Below are positions 1 through 10,087 of a DNA stretch of 10,087 nucleotides, piece after piece (position 1 is the stretch's first letter; each line of letters starts with the position of its first letter). The DNA comes from a virus. Taxonomy: Duplodnaviria > Heunggongvirae > Uroviricota > Caudoviricetes. The stretch covers positions 1 to 10,087 of the IMG/VR virus record IMGVR_UViG_2619619129_000007. One strand, given 5' to 3'. The notes under the pieces were generated by a model that was given only the letters and a program-made list of their open reading frames with translations, made no database searches and had not been told where the DNA came from. A program made the translations under genes and the position numbers.

Positions 1-674
1 ATTTCGCCCAGGGGATCACCATAATAAAATGCTGAGGCCTGGCCTTTGCGTAGTGCACGCATCACCTCAATACCTTTGATGGTGGCGTAAGCCGTCTTCA
101 TGGATTTAAATCCCAGCGTGGCGCCGATTATCCGTTTCAGTTTGCCATGATCGCATTCAATCACGTTGTTCCGGTACTTAATCTGTCGGTGTTCAACGTC
201 AGACGGGCACCGGCCTTCGCGTTTGAGCAGAGCAAGCGCGCGACCATAGGCGGGCGCTTTATCCGTGTTGATGAATCGCGGGATCTGCCACTTCTTCACG
301 TTGTTGAGGATTTTACCCAGAAACCGGTATGCAGCTTTGCTGTTACGACGGGAGGAGAGATAAAAATCGACAGTGCGGCCCCGGCTGTCGACGGCCCGGT
401 ACAGATACGCCCAGCGGCCATTGACCTTCACGTAGGTTTCATCCATGTGCCACGGGCAAAGATCGGAAGGGTTACGCCAGTACCAGCGCAGCCGTTTTTC
501 CATTTCAGGCGCATAACGCTGAACCCAGCGGTAAATCGTGGAGTGATCGACATTCACTCCGCGTTCAGCCAGCATCTCCTGCAGCTCACGGTAACTGATG
601 CCGTATTTGCAGTACCAGCGTACGGCCCACAGAATGATGTCACGCTGAAAATGCCGGCCTTTGAATGGGTTCAT
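1..674 (-). CDS. tnpA: IS26 DDE transposase (Tnp26), 3' end truncated by the window edge
   Basis: Minus-strand ATG at 674-672 translates MNPFKGRHFQRDIILWAVRWYCKYGISYRELQEMLAERGVNVDHSTIYRWVQRYAPEMEKRL... and runs out of the window at ...FYYGDPLGE, with 224 full codons visible. The + strand track ORF 147..860 is its antisense shadow. Confidence 0.9.
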   Translation of the reverse strand, partial: MNPFKGRHFQRDIILWAVRWYCKYGISYRELQEMLAERGVNVDHSTIYRWVQRYAPEMEKRLRWYWRNPSDLCPWHMDETYVKVNGRWAYLYRAVDSRGRTVDFYLSSRRNSKAAYRFLGKILNNVKKWQIPRFINTDKAPAYGRALALLKREGRCPSDVEHRQIKYRNNVIECDHGKLKRIIGATLGFKSMKTAYATIKGIEVMRALRKGQASAFYYGDPLGE

Positions 675-723
675 GTGCAGCTCCATCAGCAAAAGGGGAT
701 GATAAGTTTATCACCACCGACTA

Positions 724-737
724 TTTGCAACAGTGCC
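724..737. repeat. IS26 14-bp terminal inverted repeat (left end, IRL)
   Basis: TTTGCAACAGTGCC on the + strand is the reverse complement of the IS26 terminal repeat GGCACTGTTGCAAA; it sits 63 bp upstream of the transposase ATG, as in IS26. Confidence 0.85.
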
Positions 738-815
738 ATAGATTCTTACGTAGCGTTTCTGGCGTGCATTTTCGGGTGGTTTGTTACTGTTTTTAACGGG
801 GATACGTCAGAAACG

Positions 816-834
816 CGCTCAGGCCGTCTGAGCG
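816..834 (-). terminator. Possible weak terminator hairpin downstream of the 357-aa minus-strand gene
   Basis: CGCTCAG-GCCGT-CTGAGCG gives a 7-bp perfect stem with a 5-nt loop. On the minus strand it is followed by GCGUUUCUGACG, an interrupted U tract, so termination is uncertain. Confidence 0.3.
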
Positions 835-937
835 GTACGCGTAATGAGGCGTTATGGTAAATAGCCTATGCTAATGTCCGCTAAGAGCGAGGAGCAGACG
901 TTGAAGGCTAAAAGAAGGCTACTGAATTTGTGGCGAT

Positions 938-2011
938 TCAGTCTTCATCCGCACAATGTGGGCAGCCCGTATACCTCATTGTCTCGCCCATTGCTTCACA
1001 GGGAGTCCCACAAATTTCACAAGTATCATAGCCTGTATGGATCTCAAGACATCGTGTGCACAGGAAGTTCTCGCCAAACACACAGACCGTTTCATGGCCC
1101 TCACAGTGAGCGCAATTTGCTAGGCCATCGGGATACATCATTTCGTCCACATGACGAAAATTCTCCTCATCAAGCAAGTTATACCTTGAGAGTTCTGCGT
1201 TACAGGTGCGGCAGATGAAGGTATCGTCATCTTCTTCTTCCACCGGCAGAACCTGGTCTGTATCACACTCAGGACAGGTAAACTTTACATGGCGCTCTGA
1301 GTGAAAACAGACGCGACAAGTTTGCTCATAAACGGTAGGACCGTTCTTCCCGACGGCAAGAATTTCCATGATGGCTGCTGGCTTGTGGCAAATGGTGCAG
1401 GGATGAAATTCAGCGCCCTCAGTCGCAAGTTGTTCCAGCTCGGGCTGGATATGTTTCAGACGGGCTTCGGCATAAAACTCGTTGCCTCGCAGGAGTTGTG
1501 TTTCACCTAATGCCAGTGCCCAGTTGTGTGGTGAAGCAAAATGCTGTTGCCAGTCTTCACGCATTAGTCGGTTCAGTGCAAACCATGCCCGAGCCTGTTC
1601 AGCCAGAATGGTCTCCACCTCAGAATCACTAAAAGCTGTATGAAAGAAATGAACTACACGGTTTCGGTGATTGCGAATGGTATTAAACACAGCTTCGGTT
1701 TCTTTAGGCAGGGGCTTTTCAAGGATATCCCTCAACCGGGTACAGACATCATCAAAGGACACCGACTGAAAATCACCGGCAAGGTAGCTTTTACGCGATA
1801 CTTTTTTACCGCTGCAGACCAGCGTCCAGTGTTCGCTGGCAAGGGGTACCTTGAGCAAAATTTCTACAGCTATCCAGAAACTAACTACCGAGTGTTTGTA
1901 CTGTTTGGCCTCGAACTCTTCACGTGCCTTATCCAGAAAATCCATGCCATTCTTAATGAGAGCCGCCACATCAGCTGCGAGAGGGGCAGGTAATTTTGTT
2001 CGTGTATGCAT
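938..2011 (-). CDS. Hypothetical protein (357 aa): N-terminal alpha-helical HEPN-like domain (candidate RNase motif R-N-R-V-V-H) plus four tandem C-terminal Cys4 zinc ribbons; candidate defence/abortive-infection effector
   Basis: Long uninterrupted minus-strand ORF. Preferred start is the ATG at 2011 (MHTRTKL...), preceded by GGAG with 6-nt spacing; the track's GTG at 2029 is 6 codons upstream. Residues 116-121 are RNRVVH, fitting the Rx4-6H HEPN motif. The C-terminal 150 aa carry eight CxxC pairs (CTIC, CRVC, CPEC, CRTC, CAHC, CTRC, CEIC, CPHC). No named family recognised. Confidence 0.8.
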   Translation of the reverse strand: MHTRTKLPAPLAADVAALIKNGMDFLDKAREEFEAKQYKHSVVSFWIAVEILLKVPLASEHWTLVCSGKKVSRKSYLAGDFQSVSFDDVCTRLRDILEKPLPKETEAVFNTIRNHRNRVVHFFHTAFSDSEVETILAEQARAWFALNRLMREDWQQHFASPHNWALALGETQLLRGNEFYAEARLKHIQPELEQLATEGAEFHPCTICHKPAAIMEILAVGKNGPTVYEQTCRVCFHSERHVKFTCPECDTDQVLPVEEEDDDTFICRTCNAELSRYNLLDEENFRHVDEMMYPDGLANCAHCEGHETVCVFGENFLCTRCLEIHTGYDTCEICGTPCEAMGETMRYTGCPHCADED

Positions 2012-2481
2012 CCTGATCTCCGTTATCACGGGGGGCCGGCAGCTGCTGCAGAGATTAGTGGGTATAGAGGATAAATCTTAGTTGCTGGCTGGCCACCACA
2101 TCGAGGGCAAAGACTTTGGTGTTGACCTCATTGCACTCAAACTTCTCATGCACCATCAGCCATTGCAGGATCTTCGGATGAACAAGGCCATACAACAGGT
2201 GCATTACAAGACTGATCCTACCCAATGTGAGCAAGACCCTAGCGAGGTTATAGTTTCAATAAATTCCGAGCTGAGTCCGCCACAGCACAGTGATTTCGCC
2301 ACCGATTGTAATCTCACTCGATAAAATTAAACACAGTTATTCGCATCATTTCCCGGCTGGCAATGCGTTCACCGTGGATGCCATATTAGATAGCTCCCTT
2401 GGAAACCCTTAACGTCCGCTCCTGGCACAAAGCGGACAGTGATCACCGTTCTTACGACTACTTTCTGACTTCCTTCGTGAC

Positions 2482-2540
2482 TTGCCCTAAGCATGTTGTA
2501 GTGCGATACTTGTAATGACATTTGTAATTACAAGAGGTGT
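2482..2540 (+). promoter_or_regulatory. relBE promoter with relO operator repeats and relB ribosome-binding site
   Basis: TTGCCC (2482-2487), 17-bp spacer, GATACT (2505-2510). This overlaps the tandem operator repeats TTGTAATGACAT and TTGTAATTACAA (2509-2534), followed by AGAGGTG and the relB ATG at 2546. RelB/RelE autoregulation at such repeats is established knowledge. Confidence 0.6.
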
Positions 2541-2545
2541 AAGAC

Positions 2546-2785
2546 ATGGGTAGCATTAACCTGCGTATTGACGATGAACTTAAAGCGCGTTCTTACGCCG
2601 CGCTTGAAAAAATGGGCGTAACTCCTTCTGAAGCGCTTCGTCTCATGCTCGAGTATATCGCTGACAATGAACGCTTGCCGTTCAAACAGACACTCCTGAG
2701 TGATGAAGATGCTGAACTTGTGGAGATAGTGAAAGAACGGCTTCGTAAGCCTAAGCCAGTACGTGTGACGCTGGATGAACTCTGA
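2546..2785 (+). CDS. relB: RelB antitoxin (type II TA, ribbon-helix-helix)
   Basis: 79-aa translation MGSINLRIDDELKARSYAALEKMGVTPSEALRLMLEYIADNERLPFKQTLLSDEDAELVEIVKERLRKPKPVRVTLDEL is near-identical to E. coli K-12 RelB as I recall it. Its stop overlaps the relE start (TGATG). Confidence 0.93.
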   Translation: MGSINLRIDDELKARSYAALEKMGVTPSEALRLMLEYIADNERLPFKQTLLSDEDAELVEIVKERLRKPKPVRVTLDEL

Positions 2786-3072
2786 TGGCGTATTTTCTGG
2801 ATTTTGACGAGCGGGCACTAAAGGAATGGCGAAAGCTGGGCTCGACGGTACGTGAACAGTTGAAAAAGAAGCTGGTTGAAGTACTTGAGTCACCCCGGAT
2901 TGAAGCAAACAAGCTCCGTGGTATGCCTGATTGTTACAAGATTAAGCTCCGGTCTTCAGGCTATCGCCTTGTATACCAGGTTATAGACGAGAAAGTTGTC
3001 GTTTTCGTGATTTCTGTTGGGAAAAGAGAACGCTCGGAAGTATATAGCGAGGCGGTCAAACGCATTCTCTGA
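2785..3072 (+). CDS. relE: RelE toxin (ribosome-dependent mRNA interferase)
   Basis: 95-aa translation MAYFLDFDERALKEWRKLGSTVREQLKKKLVEVLESPRIEANKLRGMPDCYKIKLRSSGYRLVYQVIDEKVVVFVISVGKRERSEVYSEAVKRIL matches E. coli RelE in length and sequence from memory; translationally coupled to relB. Confidence 0.93.
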   Translation: MAYFLDFDERALKEWRKLGSTVREQLKKKLVEVLESPRIEANKLRGMPDCYKIKLRSSGYRLVYQVIDEKVVVFVISVGKRERSEVYSEAVKRIL

Positions 3073-3143
3073 ACCAAAGCATGACATCTCTGTTTCGCAC
3101 CGAAGGTGACACTTCTGCTTTGCGTTGACAGGAGAAGCAGGCT

Positions 3144-3299
3144 ATGAAGCAGCAAAAGGCGATGTTAATCGCCCTGATCGTCATCTGTTTAACCGTCATA
3201 GTGACGGCACTGGTAACGAGGAAAGACCTCTACGAGGTACGAATCCGAACCGGCCAGACGGAGGTCGCTGTCTTCACAGCTTACGAACCTGAGGAGTAA
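3144..3299 (+). CDS. hokD: Hok-family type I membrane toxin (HokD/RelF-like, 51 aa), third gene of the relBEF operon; carries Tyr at the usually conserved Cys position
   Basis: Not in the ORF track (under 60 aa). ATG at 3144 preceded by GGAGAAG; translation MKQQKAMLIALIVICLTVIVTALVTRKDLYEVRIRTGQTEVAVFTAYEPEE. Hok/Gef proteins normally read RKDLCEV here; this copy has TAC (Tyr). Confidence 0.85.
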   Translation: MKQQKAMLIALIVICLTVIVTALVTRKDLYEVRIRTGQTEVAVFTAYEPEE

Positions 3300-3306
3300 G
3301 AGACCA

Positions 3307-3328
3307 GGCGAGGGAGAAATCCCTCGCC
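3307..3328 (+). other. Stable GNRA-tetraloop hairpin in the hokD 3' untranslated region (possible fold-back/stability element)
   Basis: GGCGAGGGA-GAAA-TCCCTCGCC: 9-bp perfect stem closed by a GAAA loop, 8 nt after the hokD stop, with no U tract following. Confidence 0.5.
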
Positions 3329-3367
3329 ACCTCTGATGAGTCAGGCATCCTCAACGCACCCGCACTT

Positions 3368-3394
3368 AACCCGCTTCGGCGGGTTTTGTTTTTT
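3368..3394 (+). terminator. Rho-independent terminator ending the relB-relE-hokD operon
   Basis: CCCGC-TTCG-GCGGG stem-loop (3370-3383) followed by TTTTGTTTTTT. Confidence 0.65.
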
Positions 3395-3466
3395 CCTGGC
3401 ATTCTGGTTTACAATTCGCACGCCAGCCTGAACAACTGGCACCTGCTGCGCCAGCAGAGACAACCG

Positions 3467-3745
3467 ATGGCGCACGATACCAAATTACACAATTCTGATG
3501 ATTCTGCCGTCTTTGCCAGCAGGCACGGGCGGCGTTCCCGCACTTTCAAATCTGACTGGTTCCAGCATCCCCCATGCACTGAAGAACAGGCCGAGTGGCT
3601 AATTCAGTGCTACCGCAGACACGGATACGAGATTAAGAAAGCCCTCAGCCTCGATTATCGTCACTGGATAATCTCCGTCAGGCTTCCTTACTCCGAGCGC
3701 CCACCGCGTCCGTCCCGCACATACCAGCAACGGATCTGGAGGTAA
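3467..3745 (+). CDS. Hypothetical small protein, Rem-like by position (between hokD and ydfU as in K-12 Qin)
   Basis: ORF MAHDTKLHNSDDSAVFASRHGRRSRTFKSDWFQHPPCTEEQAEWLIQCYRRHGYEIKKALSLDYRHWIISVRLPYSERPPRPSRTYQQRIWR. The first in-frame ATG is at 3467; the track's 3386 start is a TTG inside the terminator U tract. The stop lies within GGAGGTAACGTG, which supplies the RBS and GTG start of the next gene. Identity to rem is positional only. Confidence 0.5.
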   Translation: MAHDTKLHNSDDSAVFASRHGRRSRTFKSDWFQHPPCTEEQAEWLIQCYRRHGYEIKKALSLDYRHWIISVRLPYSERPPRPSRTYQQRIWR

Positions 3746-3746
3746 C

Positions 3747-4796
3747 GTGCGGATATTACTTCGACCTGTTCTGGTACCGGAACTCGGGCTTGTGGTCCTT
3801 AGGCCGGGCTGTGAATCCATGCAAGTATTTCATAACCCTCGAGTGCTGGTGGAGCCTGAACCGAAAAGCATGCGTAATCTGCCGTCCGGGGTCGTTCCTG
3901 CCGTTCGCCAGCCGCTAGTGGAAGACAAAACATTGCTGCCGTTTTTCAGTAACGCACGGGTGATTCGTGCTGCTGGTGGTGCTGGTGCATTGTCTGACTG
4001 GCTGTTGCGCCATATTAAATCCTGCCAGTGGCCACACGGCGATTATCATCACAGCGAAACCGTCATTCACCGTTATGGTACCGGCGCAATGGTGTTGTGC
4101 TGGCACTGCGACAACCAGTTGCGTGACCAGACATCCGAATCACTCGAGCAACTTGCTCATCAAAACCTGTCAGCATGGATGATTGACGTCATCGGTCACG
4201 CAATAAGCGGTACGCAGGAGCGTGAATTATCTCTGGCTGAATTATCCTGGTGGGCGGTCCGCAATCAGGTGGCGGACGCGCTACCGGAAGCGGTATTACG
4301 TCGTTCGCTGGGGTTGCGTGCGGAAAAAATCCGCTCAATGTACCGTGAAAGCGACATCGTGCCGGGAGAGCAGACCGCCACCAGCATACTGAAACAGCGC
4401 ACAAAAAATCTTGCGCCGCTGCCTCACGCCCACCAGCAACAGAACCCACCACAGGAAAAGACGGTGGTCAGCATTGCCGTTGATCCTGAGTCTCCGGAAT
4501 CTTTCATGAAACGACCTAAACGTCGCCGCTGGGTTAACGAGAAATACACACGCTGGGTGAAGACACAGCCGTGTGCGTGTTGTGGTAAGCCAGCCGACGA
4601 TCCCCATCACCTGATTGGTCATGGTCAGGGCGGAATGGGGACAAAATCTCACGATATTTTCACGCTACCGCTGTGTCGGGAGCATCACAACGAGCTTCAT
4701 GCGGATCCGCTGGCGTTCGAAGAAAAGCATGGTTCTCAGGTTGATTTAATTTTTCGTTTTCTTGATCACGCCTTTGCAACTGGCGTGCTTGGGTAA
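3747..4796 (+). CDS. ydfU: DUF968-family protein (YdfU-like), with a C-terminal HNH-like Cys/His motif
   Basis: 349-aa ORF from a GTG at 3747 with GGAGG 5 nt upstream. The C-terminus carries CACCGKPADDPHHLIGHGQGG...CREHHNELH. Length and position match my recollection of K-12 Qin ydfU. Confidence 0.72.
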   Translation: MRILLRPVLVPELGLVVLRPGCESMQVFHNPRVLVEPEPKSMRNLPSGVVPAVRQPLVEDKTLLPFFSNARVIRAAGGAGALSDWLLRHIKSCQWPHGDYHHSETVIHRYGTGAMVLCWHCDNQLRDQTSESLEQLAHQNLSAWMIDVIGHAISGTQERELSLAELSWWAVRNQVADALPEAVLRRSLGLRAEKIRSMYRESDIVPGEQTATSILKQRTKNLAPLPHAHQQQNPPQEKTVVSIAVDPESPESFMKRPKRRRWVNEKYTRWVKTQPCACCGKPADDPHHLIGHGQGGMGTKSHDIFTLPLCREHHNELHADPLAFEEKHGSQVDLIFRFLDHAFATGVLG

Positions 4797-4808
4797 AAGA
4801 GGTGACTG

Positions 4809-5165
4809 ATGCTCATAGATTTGGTTTTACCTTACCCACCGACGGTGAACACTTACTGGCGACGCCGTGGCAGCACATATTTTATCTCGGAGGAGGGAAA
4901 GCGTTATCGCCGGGCTGTGGCGCTTATTGTTCGCCAGCAGCGGCTGAAATTAAGCCTGTCCGGAAGGCTGGCGATAAAGGTGATTGCAGAGCCACCGGAT
5001 AAGCGTCGTCGCGACCTGGACAATATCCTGAAAGCACCGCTGGATGCGCTGACGCATGCGGGAGTGTTAATGGACGATGAGCAGTTTGATGAAATCAATA
5101 TCGTTCGTGGTCAGCCAGTATCTGGTGGACGTCTGGGGGTGAAGATTTACCCCATAATGCATTAA
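4809..5165 (+). CDS. rusA: RusA-family Holliday junction resolvase
   Basis: 118-aa translation contains PPDKRRRDLDNILKAPLDALTHAGVLMDDEQ, matching the RusA acidic catalytic region and size; RBS AGAGGTG upstream; sits just upstream of Q as in lambdoid phages. Confidence 0.85.
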   Translation: MLIDLVLPYPPTVNTYWRRRGSTYFISEEGKRYRRAVALIVRQQRLKLSLSGRLAIKVIAEPPDKRRRDLDNILKAPLDALTHAGVLMDDEQFDEINIVRGQPVSGGRLGVKIYPIMH

Positions 5166-5179
5166 GAGCAGGTCAAAAA

Positions 5180-6001
5180 ATGAAACTGGAAGATTTACCG
5201 AAATACTACTCCCCAAAATCCCCTGGCCTGACCGATGCATCGGCCTCAACGTCAAAAGATGCGCTGAGTATCACTGATGTGATGGCCGCGCAGGGCATGA
5301 CACAGAATCGGGCTGAGATGGGTTTTTCTGCGTTCCTGGGGAAAATGGGCATCAGTATGAATGACAGGGCGCGGGCAACAGAATTACTGGCAGATTATGC
5401 ACTCAGTCGGTGCGATCGTGTGGCGGCGTTGAGAAAACTTCCGGCAGAAATAAAACCGGTAGTGATGCGCATTATGGCTTCGTACGCTTTTGAGGATTAT
5501 GCCCGTAGCGCAGCGAGTAAAAAGCAGTGCCCTTGTTGCTATGGGGAAAAATTTATTGAAAGCGTAGTTTTTACAAACAAGGTCCAGTATCCGGATGGTA
5601 AGCCGCCGGTATGGGCAAAGTGTACGAAAGGTGTGTATTCGTCTTACTGGGAAGAATGGAAAAAAGTCAGGGAGGTGGTAAAAGTTGCCTGTCCGGAGTG
5701 TGGCGGAAAGGGTGAGGTTTCCACCGCCTGTAAGGATTGCCGTGGGCGTGGTGTCGCCATTCATCGTGAAGAGTCGGTAAAACGTGGTATGCCTGTTATC
5801 AGAGACTGCCAGCGTTGTGGTGGTCGTGGCTATGAAAGACTACCATCAACGGAGGCATTTAATGCTATATGCGAGGTGACAAACCAGATAACACGCGCGT
5901 CATGGGAAAAAACAGTTAAGAAATTCTATGATGCGCTGGTGACCCGGTTTGATGTTGAAGAAGCATGGGCTGAGCGGCAGTTAAAAAAGGTAACTAGGTA
6001 A
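5180..6001 (+). CDS. Late-gene antitermination protein Q-like (273 aa) with DnaJ-like CxxCxGxG zinc-finger repeats
   Basis: Located between rusA and a pR'/tR'-like promoter-terminator pair. Contains CPCCYGEKF, CPECGGKGEV, CKDCRGRGV and CQRCGGRGYE. Assignment rests on position and these motifs, not on an alignment. Confidence 0.7.
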   Translation: MKLEDLPKYYSPKSPGLTDASASTSKDALSITDVMAAQGMTQNRAEMGFSAFLGKMGISMNDRARATELLADYALSRCDRVAALRKLPAEIKPVVMRIMASYAFEDYARSAASKKQCPCCYGEKFIESVVFTNKVQYPDGKPPVWAKCTKGVYSSYWEEWKKVREVVKVACPECGGKGEVSTACKDCRGRGVAIHREESVKRGMPVIRDCQRCGGRGYERLPSTEAFNAICEVTNQITRASWEKTVKKFYDALVTRFDVEEAWAERQLKKVTR

Positions 6002-6006
6002 CAAGG

Positions 6007-6034
6007 TTGATTTTTCCGGAATCTGTGGTAAATT
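6007..6034 (+). promoter_or_regulatory. Candidate late promoter pR' (extended -10) immediately downstream of Q
   Basis: TTGATT (6007-6012), 16-bp spacer, TGgTAAATT (6026-6034), placed as pR' is in lambdoid phages. Confidence 0.5.
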
Positions 6035-6082
6035 CGTCATAATAATGGGCTTTTTATGCCTGACGTTAGAAGAGTTTCTACA

Positions 6083-6107
6083 ACCCGCCGCCGAGCGGGT
6101 TTTTTAT
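6083..6107 (+). terminator. tR'-like intrinsic terminator (expected Q antitermination target)
   Basis: CCCGC-CGCCGA-GCGGG hairpin followed by TTTTTTATT, about 60 nt downstream of the candidate pR'. Confidence 0.6.
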
Positions 6108-6144
6108 TGCGGAATTAATTACGGACCGTTATTATTCTGCTCCC

Positions 6145-6220
6145 GGCCCTTTAGCTCAGTGGTGAGAGCGAGCGACTCATAATCGCCAGGTCGCTGGTTC
6201 AAATCCAGCAAGGGCCACCA
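6145..6220 (+). tRNA. ileZ: tRNA with CAU anticodon, ileX/ileZ-like (tRNA-Ile2, lysidine-type; tRNA-Met not excluded), CCA encoded
   Basis: Manual cloverleaf: acceptor GGCCCTT/AAGGGCC, D-arm GCTC...GAGC, anticodon loop CTCATAA (CAT at 6178-6180), T-arm GCTGG-TTCAAAT-CCAGC, discriminator A plus CCA. Resembles E. coli ileX from memory. Confidence 0.85.
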
Positions 6221-6320
6221 TCACAAACCGCCATTAGCTTATCAGGAAGAGCAGACGACACGATAACAGGGTTGTTGGTGCGGGGGCGGGTCCCCGATGG
6301 CGGTCCATTATCGGTATTCA

Positions 6321-6394
6321 GCGTTGTTAGCTCAGCCGGACAGAGCAATTGCCTTCTAAGCAATCGGTCACTGGTTCGAATCCAGTACAGCGCG
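6321..6394 (+). tRNA. argO: tRNA-Arg (anticodon UCU), argO-like, CCA not encoded
   Basis: Manual cloverleaf: acceptor GCGTTGT/ACAGCGC (one G-U pair), anticodon stem ATTGC/GCAAT, loop CTTCTAA (TCT at 6355-6357), T-arm ACTGG-TTCGAAT-CCAGT, discriminator G. Confidence 0.85.
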
Positions 6395-6534
6395 CTATAT
6401 TCATTCTTCCAGATTCCTTCCGGCAGAGCCTTATACTGAAATATACCTGGCTCAGGATATTGTTGAAAATATTTTATGTTTGTCAAAAATAAAAGTTCTG
6501 TTAAGTATTGATTGAGTGTTTGTTATACGGTCTA

Positions 6535-6861
6535 ATGGTTTTTTCAGCATTAAATATTTATCATTCATATGGTGTGGGTAGAGTGAATATTGATGAGGCG
6601 TCGGGGTGTTTCATCCTTAGGCAGCGTATTGATATAGTCAATGCAGGACGAGCAAAGGCCTTCAGCCGTTTGACAGTTTTGTTCTGTACTCCTGATCGTC
6701 TTTCGGGAAGAGACGTTATTATTCTGAATAGTGATGCTATACAGAGGGTTTGCGATGAGTTCATGGTTGCTAATTCAGAATTATTTGCTCTTGTTCAGGA
6801 GTACAACAGAATAGCCAGGACCTGTGGTATGGATGAACTTCGGATTACTCATCTGGGGTAG
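6535..6861 (+). CDS. Hypothetical cargo protein (about 108 aa), unrecognised
   Basis: ORF in moderately AT-rich DNA after tRNA-Arg. First in-frame ATG at 6535 (track start 6508 is a TTG); in-frame GTGs at 6574 and 6583 are alternatives. Candidate promoter TTGTCA-N16-TAAGTA at about 6478-6505. No family recognised; coding status unproven. Confidence 0.4.
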   Translation: MVFSALNIYHSYGVGRVNIDEASGCFILRQRIDIVNAGRAKAFSRLTVLFCTPDRLSGRDVIILNSDAIQRVCDEFMVANSELFALVQEYNRIARTCGMDELRITHLG

Positions 6862-7253
6862 ATACATATCTGGATTATCACTTGTTACGGTAAAAAGTGA
6901 TTGCTTACTGTTTTTGTGAGTGGCATTGCAGCAGCCGGATAATGTCAGTGCTGGCTGACGGTGTGCTGGTGGCGGGTGTGGTGGTTGTTGCTTTCCCGTT
7001 GCTGAAAAAGAAAACGCCAGACTGTTAGCCGGGTATCAGTTAGCGGGAGAAATTTTTAAATACTTCACAATTCAGGCGGTTGACTGTTGTCTGGTTTGCG
7101 GGGAGTTTGTTAAAAGAAACTGGCATGGTGAATCCCCCTGTGCGGAGGGGCAATCAGCGAGTAGGTATATGGGATAATCGCGGATTCAGGTGCTGGTACT
7201 GAATTCACCGGGAGGCACCCGGCACCATGCAATGGCACATAGCGCCACTCTCC

Positions 7254-7290
7254 AGCCCCTCTCCGGAGGGGCTGTTTATATTGATTTTGT
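7254..7290 (+). terminator. Strong intrinsic terminator closing the plus-strand cargo unit
   Basis: AGCCCCTC-TCCG-GAGGGGCT: 8-bp perfect stem, followed on the + strand by GTTTATATTGATTTTGT. No U tract on the minus side. Confidence 0.6.
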
Positions 7291-7308
7291 CAGATGTGAG
7301 TAAACTCC

Positions 7309-7644
7309 TTATGGACTTTGTTGTTTTAGTCCATAAGGACATATTTGCAGAGTGCAACGGTTATTAAAGCATTCATTCAATACGTTATCTGTATTTGTAG
7401 GACATTCCTGGCTGTTTTTGATTAAATTCCAGAATGTTTTATTGAATGGTACTACGTTGTAAATGGTTACAGGTAGCACTTTGTTATTGAGCATGATACC
7501 TGTGTGAGTCAGTGTAAATATACTTTCAGGAGGTAAGAAAGCATCCGATTGATACCAGATTATTAATTTTATTTTACTCCATATGACTGAAAAAGATATT
7601 CCGCATGATGGCTGGATAACTGTATCAATCACAATCCACTTCAT
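7309..7644 (-). CDS. Hypothetical Cys-containing protein (111 aa) in strongly AT-rich DNA, transcribed against the late operon
   Basis: Minus-strand ORF with a good RBS (AAGGAAGCTAA then ATG at 7644). Translation [43 protein letters not shown]...[31 protein letters not shown]. No family recognised. Confidence 0.5.
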
Positions 7645-7904
7645 TTAGCTTCCTTGTTTATGCCTTGCTGGTGATGTTCTGAAAAGTATAAATGATATTT
7701 TTGAATATAAACCATAGAGCAGAATTATTTTTCTGATGTTGTTTATTGTTTATTTAAATGCAGGGTGGTTTATATCTCGTCTTGTAGTTTATCCATGCAT
7801 ATCTGCTTGATGATCAGGTTTCTATTTAAGGTATGGTTTTGTGTTTTTTCTGTGTTACATGTCTGGTATTTTAAAGAATTATTTTTCAGATGGTGGAAAG
7901 AACC

Positions 7905-8093
7905 ATGGCATTTAAACACTATGATGTTGTCAGGGCGGCGCCGCCGTCAGATCTTGCGGAAAAGCTGACACATAAACTGAAAGAGGGCTGGCAGCCGTTT
8001 GGTAGTCCGGTGGCCATAACCCCTTATACCCTGATGCAGGCGATTGCAGCAGAAGGTGATGTGGTGGTCAGTGGTGCAACTGAGCCCGAGTGA
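7905..8093 (+). CDS. Small DUF1737-like phage protein commonly found just upstream of holin genes
   Basis: Translation MAFKHYDVVRAAPPSDLAEKLTHKLKEGWQPFGSPVAITPYTLMQAIAAEGDVVVSGATEPE. Start chosen at the ATG at 7905 (GGAAAG upstream) rather than the track's 7890. Family name recalled from memory. Confidence 0.65.
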   Translation: MAFKHYDVVRAAPPSDLAEKLTHKLKEGWQPFGSPVAITPYTLMQAIAAEGDVVVSGATEPE

Positions 8094-8335
8094 TACTACG
8101 TCATCGTACTGGCCCGGCATTCCAGGCCATAAAAGACAGTCTGGCAGTGGGACTAAATGTACTGACGCTGACGGATATTACCAAAAATGCAACGTATGGC
8201 GTTGAGATAGAAAGTCTGGTGCTGGAGATAAATGCACCGGCATCATCATAAAAAGTGAGCCAGTCAAATGGAAGGTATCGTTAAACTCACCGGTAGTGTC
8301 AGTGGATCGTCTGAGACGCTTGCATGAGTTATCAG

Positions 8336-8368
8336 AGCCATCAGTAGTTAACTGGTGGCTTTTTTATT
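8336..8368 (+). terminator. Intrinsic terminator-like hairpin about 35 bp upstream of the holin start
   Basis: AGCCATCAG-TAGTTAA-CTGGTGGCT: 9-bp stem with one G-U pair, followed by TTTTTTATT. Confidence 0.5.
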
Positions 8369-8400
8369 GTTGTCAGCTTCCGGATAACGGGAGACGGGGT

Positions 8401-8616
8401 ATGGACCAGATGGAAAAAATCACAACAGGTGTGTCATACACCACGTCAGCGGTGGGAACGGGCTACTGGTTCCTGCAGTTGCTGGACAGGGTTTCCCCGT
8501 CTCAGTGGGCGGCAATAGGCGTGCTGGGGAGTCTGCTGTTTGGGCTGCTGACATATCTGACTAACCTGTATTTCAAAATCAGAGAGGACCGTCGTAAGGC
8601 GGCACGGGGAGAGTAA
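8401..8616 (+). CDS. Class II holin of the phage 21 S21 pinholin family (71 aa), with dual-start motif M-D-Q-M
   Basis: Translation [71 protein letters not shown] closely resembles S21 as recalled (...[14 protein letters not shown]...[21 protein letters not shown]). The track ORF from 8296 is an in-frame upstream extension. Confidence 0.88.
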
Positions 8617-8620
8617 TTCA

Positions 8621-8971
8621 ATGACTCAAAACTATGAACTGATTGTGAAAGGGATCCGCAATTTTGAGAATAAAGTTACGGTAACTTTAGCGTTACGGGA
8701 CAAAAAACGCTTTGACGGTGAAATTTTTGACCTGGACATCTCGCTGGACCGTGTTGAAGGTGCCGCGCTGGAGTTTTATGAGGCAGCAGCCAGAATGAGC
8801 ATCAGACAGGTCTTCCTGGATGTTGCTGCCGGGTTATGTGAAGGGGATGAGCAGTCGCCGGAAAAGCGCCCCGTAATTTTAGAGGCGCAGAATGTATGGA
8901 TAACCTACAAAGGAAAGCTACCGGGAAGAATTACTGGTTCTCTGAAGACTCCTCCGGAATCACAACCTTAA
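8621..8971 (+). CDS. Hypothetical protein between holin and endolysin, YdfR-like (possibly DUF1327)
   Basis: 116-aa ORF starting 5 nt after the holin stop: MTQNYELIVKGIRNFENKVTVTLALRDKKRFDGEIFDLDISLDRVEGAALEFYEAAARMSIRQVFLDVAAG... A gene occupies this slot in K-12 Qin (ydfR); family number is from uncertain memory. Confidence 0.6.
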   Translation: MTQNYELIVKGIRNFENKVTVTLALRDKKRFDGEIFDLDISLDRVEGAALEFYEAAARMSIRQVFLDVAAGLCEGDEQSPEKRPVILEAQNVWITYKGKLPGRITGSLKTPPESQP

Positions 8972-9034
8972 GTCACTGACCGGAACAGATAAACCTGTCC
9001 GTGGGCAGAAACCGATAAATCCTGATAAATATCC

Positions 9035-9568
9035 ATGAACGCAAAAATCAGATACGGCCTGTCGGCTGCCGTTCTGGCACTGATTGCCGTCGGTGCGCCC
9101 GCGCCTGATATTCTCGACCAGTTTCTGGATGAAAAAGAAGGTAACCACACAACGGCATACCGCGATGGGTCCGGCATCTGGACCATCTGTCGGGGTGCCA
9201 CGATGGTGGATGGAAAACCCGTTTTTCCCGGTATGAAACTGTCGAAGGAAAAATGCGACCAGGTCAACGCCATTGAGCGTGATAAGGCGCTGGCATGGGT
9301 GGAGCGCAATATTAAAGTACTACTGACCGAACCACAAAAAGCGGGTATAGCGTCATTCTGTCCCTATAACATTGGCCCCGGTAAGTGTTTCCCGTCGACG
9401 TTTTATAAGCGGCTGAATGCCGGTGATCGTAAGGGCGCATGCGAGGCGATTCGCTGGTGGATAAAAGATGGTGGGCGCGATTGCCGCATACGTTCAAATA
9501 ACTGCTATGGACAGGTTATTCGTCGTGACCAGGAAAGCGCATTAGCCTGTTGGGGGATAGAGCAGTGA
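9035..9568 (+). CDS. SAR endolysin (phage lysozyme with N-terminal signal-anchor-release domain), R21/RrrQ-like, 177 aa
   Basis: N-terminal Gly/Ala-rich weakly hydrophobic segment [16 protein letters not shown] followed by a lysozyme-like E...D...T region ([22 protein letters not shown]). Pairs naturally with the pinholin. No obvious SD upstream. Confidence 0.85.
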
Positions 9569-10026
9569 GCAGAGTCGCCGCGATTATTTATGCTTTGGTT
9601 ATCTGCATCATCGTCTGCCTGTCGTGGGCGGTCAATCATTACCGTGATAACGCCATCGCCTACAAAGAACAGCGTGATAAAAAAGTCAGTGAGCTGAAGC
9701 AGTCGATCGCCACCATCGCTGACATGCAGCAGCGTCAGCGTGATGTTGCTGCACTCGATGCAAAGTACTCGAGAGAATTAGCCAATGCGAAAGCTGAAAA
9801 TGAAACTCTGCGCGCTGATGTTGCCGCTGGTCGTCGTCGGTTGCACATCAAAGCAGTCTGTCAGTCAGTGCGTGAAGCCACCACCGCCTCCGGCGTGGAT
9901 AATGCAACCAGCCCCCGACTGGCAGACACCGCTGAACGGGATTATTTCACCCTCAGAGAGAGGCTGATCACTATGCAAAAACAACTGGAAGGAACCCAGA
10001 AGTATATTAATGAGCAGTGCAGATAG
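9562..10026 (+). CDS. Rz inner-membrane spanin (i-spanin), lambda Rz-like
   Basis: From GTG at 9562: [30 protein letters not shown]...[62 protein letters not shown], near-identical to lambda Rz as I recall it; overlaps the endolysin stop. Confidence 0.9.
9785..9967 (+). CDS. Rz1 outer-membrane lipoprotein spanin (o-spanin), embedded in Rz in the +1 frame
   Basis: [60 protein letters not shown]: signal peptide with lipobox (VVGC), proline-rich mature part, fully nested in Rz as in lambda. Confidence 0.85.
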
Positions 10027-10087
10027 AGCTGCCCATATCGATGGGCAACTCATGCAATTATTGTGAGCAATACACACGCGCTTCCAG

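Follow-up and report, generated by a model that had tools for sequence, protein, structure and literature searches.

Between a partial copy of IS26 and a relBE-hokD cluster, the DNA of IMG/VR virus record IMGVR_UViG_2619619129_000007 carries an open reading frame (ORF) of 357 amino acids (aa) on the minus strand, and the question raised by this locus is whether the gene represents a new kind of single-gene defence effector or belongs to a system that is already known. The stretch analyzed, here called the window, comprises positions 1 to 10,087 of that record. An earlier note on this DNA, made from its letters, had considered the ORF a candidate for an undescribed architecture outside the named families, composed of a HEPN-like N-terminal region and four zinc ribbons. 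The analysis leads to a different answer: the gene at 938-2011 (-) quite probably encodes a single-gene anti-phage protein of the HEC-08 family, carried on a small cassette within a Qin-like lambdoid prophage.

Comparison of the window protein with the models of PADLOC-DB v2 resulted in a match to HEC-08 (PDLC04162) with an E-value of 4.9e-145 and 481 bits, which spanned protein residues 6-355 and, in the profile of 358 positions, positions 7-351. The PADLOC model for DUF3644 matched residues 13-158 (E 2.5e-62), and PHROG 37794, a family with no function assigned, was matched with an E-value of 2e-132. The name HEC-08 stands for Hma-embedded candidate 8 (Payne et al., bioRxiv 10.1101/2024.01.29.577857), where Hma means helicase-methylase-ATPase; in the description given there, a DUF3644 HEPN domain at the N-terminus precedes several zinc-finger-like domains, and the authors foresaw such systems beyond hma loci too. 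Anantharaman et al. 2013 (PMC3710099) had assigned DUF3644, under the name EC042_2821 family, to the HEPN superfamily and described it as "fused to ZnR". The traits of HEC-08, namely a full-length profile match, a DUF3644 HEPN domain with an Rx4-6H motif and several (predicted) zinc-ribbon-like domains, are all found in the window protein. Judged by its sequence, the window gene is a full-length member of HEC-08, a family already described and experimentally supported, and not a new system.

The function of HEC-08 was studied in E. coli, where seven of the candidates, HEC-08 among them, lowered the plaquing of coliphages and where mutation of H128, the His of the Rx4-6H motif, abolished defence by HEC-08 (bioRxiv 10.1101/2024.01.29.577857). 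The protein tested, WP_150698383.1 from E. coli ECOR52 (sequence in Table S2 of that study), defended as a single gene from a clone containing the native upstream region and an inducible promoter. The window protein and WP_150698383.1 are 49% identical over 350 aa (E 4e-123); HRNRVVH aligns exactly, all CxxC pairs align, and H121 of the window protein aligns with H128 of the ECOR52 protein. The two proteins are of similar length (357 vs 366 aa), and in both the DUF3644 HEPN domain is followed by a zinc-ribbon-like C-terminus. The proposal that this is a single-gene defence family with a HEPN domain is thus supported through a homologue, which protects E. coli and needs its motif His. By analogy with this 49%-identical protein, the window protein may likewise defend as a single gene and depend on its motif His. 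An N-terminal HEPN domain with a conserved Rx4-6H motif is also typical of the EC042_2821/DUF3644 family as a whole; its prototype EC042_2821 carries a C-terminal REase domain, whereas the window protein carries zinc ribbons instead.

Translation of 938-2011 confirmed the intact minus-strand ORF, which starts with ATG preceded by GGAG 6 nt 5' of it; an alternative in-frame GTG at 2029 would give a protein of 363 aa, six residues longer. In every copy of the gene found, the reading frame was whole (at least 99% identity). Conservation was assessed in an alignment of 46 homologues with 40-67% identity to the window protein, in which H115, R116, N117, R118, V120 and H121 were invariant, as were 16 of the 16 cysteines of the CxxC pairs. 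Because of this invariance, neither the motif nor the cysteine pattern can be due to chance. The HEPN motif with Asn after Arg, as proposed from the letters, is therefore present as RNRVVH at residues 116-121, and the Asn agrees with the polar residue (N, D or H) that follows the Arg in the HEPN superfamily. All eight of the CxxC pairs that had been called were found, starting at residues 205, 232, 246, 267, 300, 318, 331 and 350; their spacing, which had been called even, is only approximately so, with 13-33 residues separating the pairs. The N-terminal 204 residues contain only 2 cysteines.

An AlphaFold2 model calculated from the 46-sequence alignment was confident (pLDDT 87.7, pTM 0.78). 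Its N-terminal half was helical, in agreement with the all-helical appearance noted before, and contained the all-alpha, four-helix up-and-down core of HEPN domains, while the C-terminal half consisted of beta-hairpins. Together with the eight invariant CxxC pairs, the beta-hairpins make the suggested four Cys4 zinc ribbons probable. Csm6, AbiA and AbiV were named as comparators for the structure of the window protein. Solved HEPN proteins (SO_3166 5yep, the HEPN-MNT toxins 7ae2 and 8xdj, AbiV 9bj5 and Csm6 6tug) showed about 10% sequence identity. Unlike the solved HEPN toxins and Abi proteins, the window protein comes without an MNT antitoxin partner and without a CARF sensor; its candidate sensor would be the zinc-ribbon array, which has no structural relative, and a profile search of PDB sequences gave zinc-finger matches at chance level only. 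Sub-threshold Pfam-A and NCBIfam matches to HEPN (E 0.032), HEPN_Swt1 (E 0.038), zinc ribbons and ECs_2282_CxxC (E 1e-4) were unusable alone.

Homologues of the HEC-08 type are numerous. An exhaustive profile search, in which cluster representatives at the 50% identity level were counted, identified 1585 representatives at E<=1e-3 and 419 at E<=1e-30. Since most of these have a length of 340-370 aa, they have the architecture in common. In distant bacteria, homologues were located between HmaA and HmaB in four loci (PADLOC E = 0), reproducing the embedding behind the HEC-08 name. The 10,087 nt of the window contain no Hma genes, and the window gene is not Hma-embedded; unlike the Hma-embedded HEC-08, this allele occurs in a Qin-like prophage slot and, via IS26, on resistance plasmids. 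Homologues from Enterobacterales sit in islands and prophages, adjoining integrases, a dynamin-like protein or a DRT-type reverse transcriptase; another neighbour in this group is a 1650-aa protein with weak NERD and kinase matches and clear AAA_11/AAA_12 helicase matches. A tblastn search of 50,697 phage records gave zero matches, though the PHROG family exists and 11 IMG/VR viral contigs carry homologues.

With family membership, HEPN fold, motif and cysteine conservation observed, the most likely mode of action can be outlined, in which RNase activity, its RNA target, sensing by the zinc ribbons, dimerization, a trigger and an abortive outcome are presumed. Metal-independent endoribonuclease activity is a trait of the HEPN superfamily; for the window protein we can only infer it. 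R116-x4-H121 of the DUF3644/EC042_2821 HEPN domain would form the predicted RNase active site. The protein would be produced constitutively and tolerated by the cell until, on infection, the zinc-ribbon half senses a phage-derived trigger (protein or nucleic acid) or, alternatively, binds the substrate. The HEPN domain would then cleave RNA, probably as a dimer that joins two Rx4-6H motifs, and this cleavage would halt phage production, probably at a growth cost for the infected cell.

Several points weigh against an anti-phage HEC-08 protein that works in this way. Pfam-A and NCBIfam gave nothing significant for the window protein, with the DUF3644 model of the current Pfam-A included, and the HEPN assignment rests on the PADLOC models, the structure prediction and the motif. 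That R116 and H121 lie side by side, and that the cysteines pair into four Cys4 sites, is presumed. Defence by the window allele is argued from the tested homologue with its 49% identity, and the literature examined yielded no report of RNase activity for any HEC-08 protein. Finally, a scan of 700-2600 revealed no sigma-70 consensus promoter; since the upstream recombinase gene, from which transcription may normally be driven, is also truncated (see below), expression in the window context can only be presumed. Two terminator-like sites were found in the same scan, both inside the ORF and at chance level.

The distribution of the allele bears on the first alternative. The exact gene was present in 42 of the 5426 complete E. 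coli genomes, in copies at least 99% identical, and 39 of its 43 places were on plasmids; an identical protein was found on plasmids of Salmonella, Shigella, Citrobacter and Edwardsiella. In total, the protein occurs on at least 1000 contigs, where it is named 'hypothetical protein' or 'HsdR'. In nearly every context read, the same fragment was shared, consisting of IS26, HEC-08, a recombinase remnant, truncated ydfV, relB and truncated relE. This fragment corresponds to window 1-2942 (L001, L002, L003, L005-L007), with relE cut at 2942 in the plasmid copies, and is present on many plasmids and a few chromosomes, adjoining qnrS1/ISKpn19, CTX-M-15, TEM-1 or sul2/strAB in resistance regions. The exceptions were L008 (CP193499.1), which contains full relE and matches up to window position 3130, with an IS21-type pair (rve-domain ORF and IstB_IS21) a few hundred bp beyond, and L004 and L009, which contain the cassette alone. 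The whole window was found in no complete E. coli RefSeq genome, the best matches being 3130-10087 or 1-2942. Because relE, hokD and the prophage late region are kept, the window looks like the prophage context from which IS26 took the fragment.

Such a distribution could also indicate a role mainly against plasmids or other mobile elements, in which case plasmid spread would reflect competition between plasmids. Ishtar1 and Ishtar2, which have an N-terminal DUF4145 or DUF3644 HEPN domain, cause loss of plasmid RP4 rather than phage defence (bioRxiv 10.64898/2026.07.06.735840), and, like the window protein, they are single HEPN proteins near defence genes on mobile elements, with a C-terminal domain of unknown function. 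However, they end in a domain that combines a sheet of 5-7 beta-strands with three helices, and not in a zinc-ribbon array; this domain is absent in the window protein, as compared by description and not by sequence. In addition, the tested HEC-08 homologue acts against phages, and the plasmid location is accounted for by IS26 hitch-hiking beside qnrS1, CTX-M-15 and TEM-1. A mainly anti-plasmid role is therefore considered rather unlikely, and anti-plasmid and anti-phage roles are compatible with each other. For an anti-phage HEC-08 protein, the distribution has practical consequences: the labels 'hypothetical' (RefSeq) and 'HsdR' mask a probable anti-phage gene, and resistance plasmids with this allele may, by analogy with the tested homologue, also carry a phage-defence function, which bears on phage therapy.

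The gene might also be an inert passenger, intact but silent DNA without present function that was moved by IS26 and by cassette exchange. The missing consensus promoter, the truncated recombinase and a fragment of an IS3-family element upstream would fit such a passenger, and as all copies are at least 99% identical, recent spread instead of selection could explain the intact ORF. On the other hand, all catalytic and structural residues are kept in the window protein, and L012, a locus of the ECOR52 type, has an equal upstream truncation, yet the ECOR52 gene still defended when cloned. We regard a passenger as unlikely.

The region upstream of the gene contains an apparent small partner. The 49-aa ORF WP_000550473.1 was ruled out as an antitoxin or partner, since it is the tail of a tyrosine recombinase without the catalytic Tyr. 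In tblastn searches, stretches 64-77% identical to this ORF were found directly upstream of HEC-08 homologues elsewhere. L020, a Citrobacter freundii locus, has an intact tyrosine recombinase of 254 aa (Phage_integrase E 8.6e-17), whose C-terminus corresponds to the matching stretch and whose gene stops 20 bp short of the HEC-08 start. For box II, the window remnant shows LMVH..CN.VNT instead of LLGH..ST.VYT, with Asn in place of the catalytic Tyr. The same Tyr-to-Asn change was found upstream of HEC-08 in L012, together with the equal truncation, and in the recombinase remnant of L028, which is also of the ECOR52 type; the HEC-08 protein of L012 is 99.7% identical to the tested ECOR52 protein. 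What decayed around the window gene lies upstream and, from its sequence, is a tyrosine recombinase. Within the same cassette, an 80-bp IS3-like stretch (2300-2379) represents a mobile-element scar.

The earlier note had suggested that a partner gene could have been lost on the other side, through IS26. The cassette boundary at 876-899 is intact, the prophage backbone resumes at or before 898, ∼40 bp past the stop codon, and IS26 lies 139 bp beyond. Because backbone and boundary are both intact, removal of a downstream partner by IS26 is not supported. No conserved partner gene was found around the homologues, the sole recurrent upstream neighbour being the tyrosine recombinase. HEPN-MNT toxin-antitoxin systems of type II/VII have an adjacent MNT antitoxin gene, whereas none was found in the window or among the 25 commonest Pfam families around the homologues. 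An addiction or stabilization toxin of the prophage or a plasmid, with the antidote lost or encoded elsewhere and no role in immunity, is improbable: the family comes with neither an MNT protein nor any other conserved small partner, the 49-aa ORF is what is left of a recombinase, only HEC-03 and HEC-04, and not HEC-08, were reported as toxic, and at least 1000 contigs retain the gene by itself.

An undescribed orphan single-gene defence architecture outside the named families is very improbable. The negative Pfam-A and NCBIfam results and the 'hypothetical' label in RefSeq would favour it; of the checks proposed in the earlier note, Pfam-A gave nothing significant and PADLOC a clear HEC-08 assignment. 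Full-length matches to PHROG 37794 and to HEC-08, a family that has been described and tested, and the listing of ZnR fusions in 2013 stand against it. A confident match to a characterised non-defence family had been named as grounds for abandoning the proposal; the match obtained is confident and to a characterised family, but that family is a defence one.

The name HsdR, a type I restriction subunit, by which NCBI and UniRef call cluster members and homologues (P0003, P0013 and others), can practically be dismissed: the match to the N-terminal region of PRK11448 is weak (E 0.011; 13.8 bits vs a cut-off of 729; 357 aa vs a model of 1123 positions), no helicase or nuclease domain was found, and no hsdM or hsdS gene is nearby. 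HsdR enzymes are proteins of ∼1000 aa with an SF2 helicase motor and a PD-(D/E)xK nuclease, and have hsdM and hsdS partners. Given the domain content, the name is wrong; its source is probably no more than the HEPN-like region shared at the N-terminus.

How the HEC-08 gene came to its position may be hinted at by the borders of its cassette. The cassette is 1.56 kb long (window 876-2437) and is bounded by 24-bp palindromes of the form GTCCGCT-N10-AGCGGAC, of which two were observed in the window vs 0.02 expected by chance. Positions 739-898 share 89% identity with the DNA between ydfW and flxA in K-12 Qin; this homology fades right after the B-type site and resumes within the A-type site, at 2418 inside ydfV. 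From the Qin homology on both sides it follows that the HEC-08 segment stands in place of flxA and the 3' part of ydfV, and the breakpoints of the swap between flxA (K-12) and HEC-08 are located inside the two palindromes. Two further copies, L004 9575-11139 and L009 9575-11132, correspond to window 873/880-2437 with more than 99.6% identity, starting at the B-type site and ending exactly at 2437. Their contexts are unrelated, one between aldo-keto reductase and LysR genes and the other beside ArdC-like, DUF2513 and conjugation genes. Their palindromes have the same inner arms as those of the window but differ from them in the outer arms or in the final bases of the spacer, as would be expected from exchange inside the sites.

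The same B...A bracket was identified around other genes. In K-12 Qin, it surrounds flxA and part of ydfV (L011 4138, 5129), and it surrounds the ECOR52-type HEC-08 cassette in L012 (15-80, 1071, 4283) and this type of cassette together with a neighbouring one in L028 (3732, 7105-7170, 9352-9417). An E. coli island has two consecutive cassettes, in the first of which HEC-08 is accompanied by a dynamin-like gene and an integrase remnant, while the second carries a reverse transcriptase together with a hypothetical gene. The bracket also occurs in the P2-like prophage hotspot of L039 (9001-9066, 10747), between tail-fibre assembly and tail-sheath genes, and further palindromes are located in L038 (2848, 9011-9076, 13822) and L040 (92-115, 1743-1766). 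Neighbouring cassettes are joined as A-N18-B, a composite present in 1274 of 5426 complete E. coli genomes. The window cassette resembles that of ECOR52 in containing a single gene, with a decayed recombinase remnant upstream and A/B palindromes around it, but the orientation of the gene relative to the B...A bracket is opposite.

In GenBank AJ512683, the Z-region of phage P2-EC58, the annotated left and right inverted repeats contain these two palindromes; the right inverted repeat begins with the B-type site and the left one ends with the A-type site. The repeats are probably those of Nilsson et al. (Mol Biol Evol 2004), as attributed from the GenBank record and the title alone. Common to the P2 Z-region cassettes and the window is a foreign gene between palindromes, one with a TGGCAC-type and one with a GAGCGAGG-type spacer, and spacers of both types were found at 876-899 and 2414-2437. 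In contrast, the annotated repeats of the P2 Z-region are longer (91-113 bp), and the window bracket, with HEC-08 as its cargo, is part of a lambdoid (Qin-like) prophage.

The palindromes were rejected as a general feature of HEC-08 loci: among 16 scanned loci they occurred only in the window, L004, L009, L012, L028 and L011, and they were not found in the 11 IMG/VR homologue loci. They belong to certain E. coli cassettes and not to the protein family. They were also rejected, by sequence inspection, as integron attC sites, as they lack RYYYAAC/GTTRRRY cores and are built differently. We tentatively propose that the HEC-08 unit 876-2437 is a mobile defence cassette, exchanged among unrelated elements by recombinase-catalysed recombination at the palindromes, although at present this is a possibility to be entertained rather than the expected outcome. 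Such exchange might involve Qin-like prophages and the P2 Z-region hotspot, along with flu/CP4-type islands and further sites on the chromosome. How defence genes pass from one element type to another was left open in a 2026 study of their swapping in P2 and P4, which makes no mention of such sites. If true, the mobile cassette would be a concrete mechanism for fast swapping of defence genes between mobile elements, and IS26 would have moved one such cassette onto resistance plasmids. Only the cassette bracket and the IS26 hitch-hiking of a defence gene on resistance plasmids are considered worth follow-up.

The arrangement around the gene agrees with the earlier description. IS26 had been placed about 200 bp downstream, and its inverted repeat ends 200 bp from the stop codon. 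The slot beside relB, where K-12 Qin was said to carry other small genes, is that of flxA and ydfV, and transcription is divergent as proposed, with relB (2546-2785) and relE (2785-3072) on the plus strand and the HEC-08 ORF on the minus strand. The coordinates of all features are listed in the table.

Table. Features of the window, ordered by position.
Feature	Position	Strand	Basis
IS26, partial, running off the left window end; terminal inverted repeat ends at 737	1..737	-	transposase annotated in identical DNA; L008 copies match
Qin-like backbone, homologous to the K-12 ydfW-flxA intergenic region	739..875		89% identity to MG1655 Qin
B-type palindrome GTCCGCT-AAGAGCGAGG-AGCAGAC	876..899		spacer AAGAGCGAGG
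HEC-08 family gene, 357 aa, WP_000557466.1	938..2011, stop codon included	-	ORF translation, PADLOC, PHROG, homologue identity
C-terminal array of eight CxxC pairs, probably four Cys4 zinc ribbons	953..1399	-	residues 205-353
N-terminal HEPN domain, DUF3644 / EC042_2821 family	1538..1975	-	residues 13-158
Rx4-6H motif R116-N-R-V-V-H121, predicted catalytic	1649..1666	-	residues 116-121, aligned with ECOR52 HRNRVVH
49-aa ORF WP_000550473.1, decayed tyrosine-recombinase C-terminus	2055..2204	-	tblastn, comparison with L020
IS3-family-like fragment	2300..2379		82-86% identity inside IS3/ISEc16 transposase genes
Truncated ydfV remnant	2411..2521	-	RefSeq annotation of identical DNA, K-12 alignment
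A-type palindrome GTCCGCT-CCTGGCACAA-AGCGGAC	2414..2437		spacer CCTGGCACAA
relB-relE toxin-antitoxin pair	2546..3072	+	Pfam RelB E 1.8e-32, ParE_toxin E 2.2e-13
hokD-type Hok toxin gene	3144..3299	+	Pfam HOK_GEF E 2e-23
tRNA-Met (CAT)	6145-6220	+	downstream of Q antiterminator gene
tRNA-Arg (TCT)	6321-6395	+	downstream of Q antiterminator gene
sRNA STnc100	7094-7283	+	full-length Rfam match, 132 bits, E 1e-29; between tRNAs and lysis genes

The remainder of the window is a Qin-like lambdoid late region with genes for a DUF968 protein, RusA, a Q antiterminator, two tRNAs, a holin and a lysozyme (Pfam/ARAGORN), the end of the lysozyme gene being overlapped by a putative Rz-like ORF. tRNA genes downstream of the Q antiterminator are typical for lambdoid prophages. 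At the other end, the third-longest ORF of the window (147-860, +, 237 aa) is antisense to the IS26 transposase gene and is almost certainly spurious.

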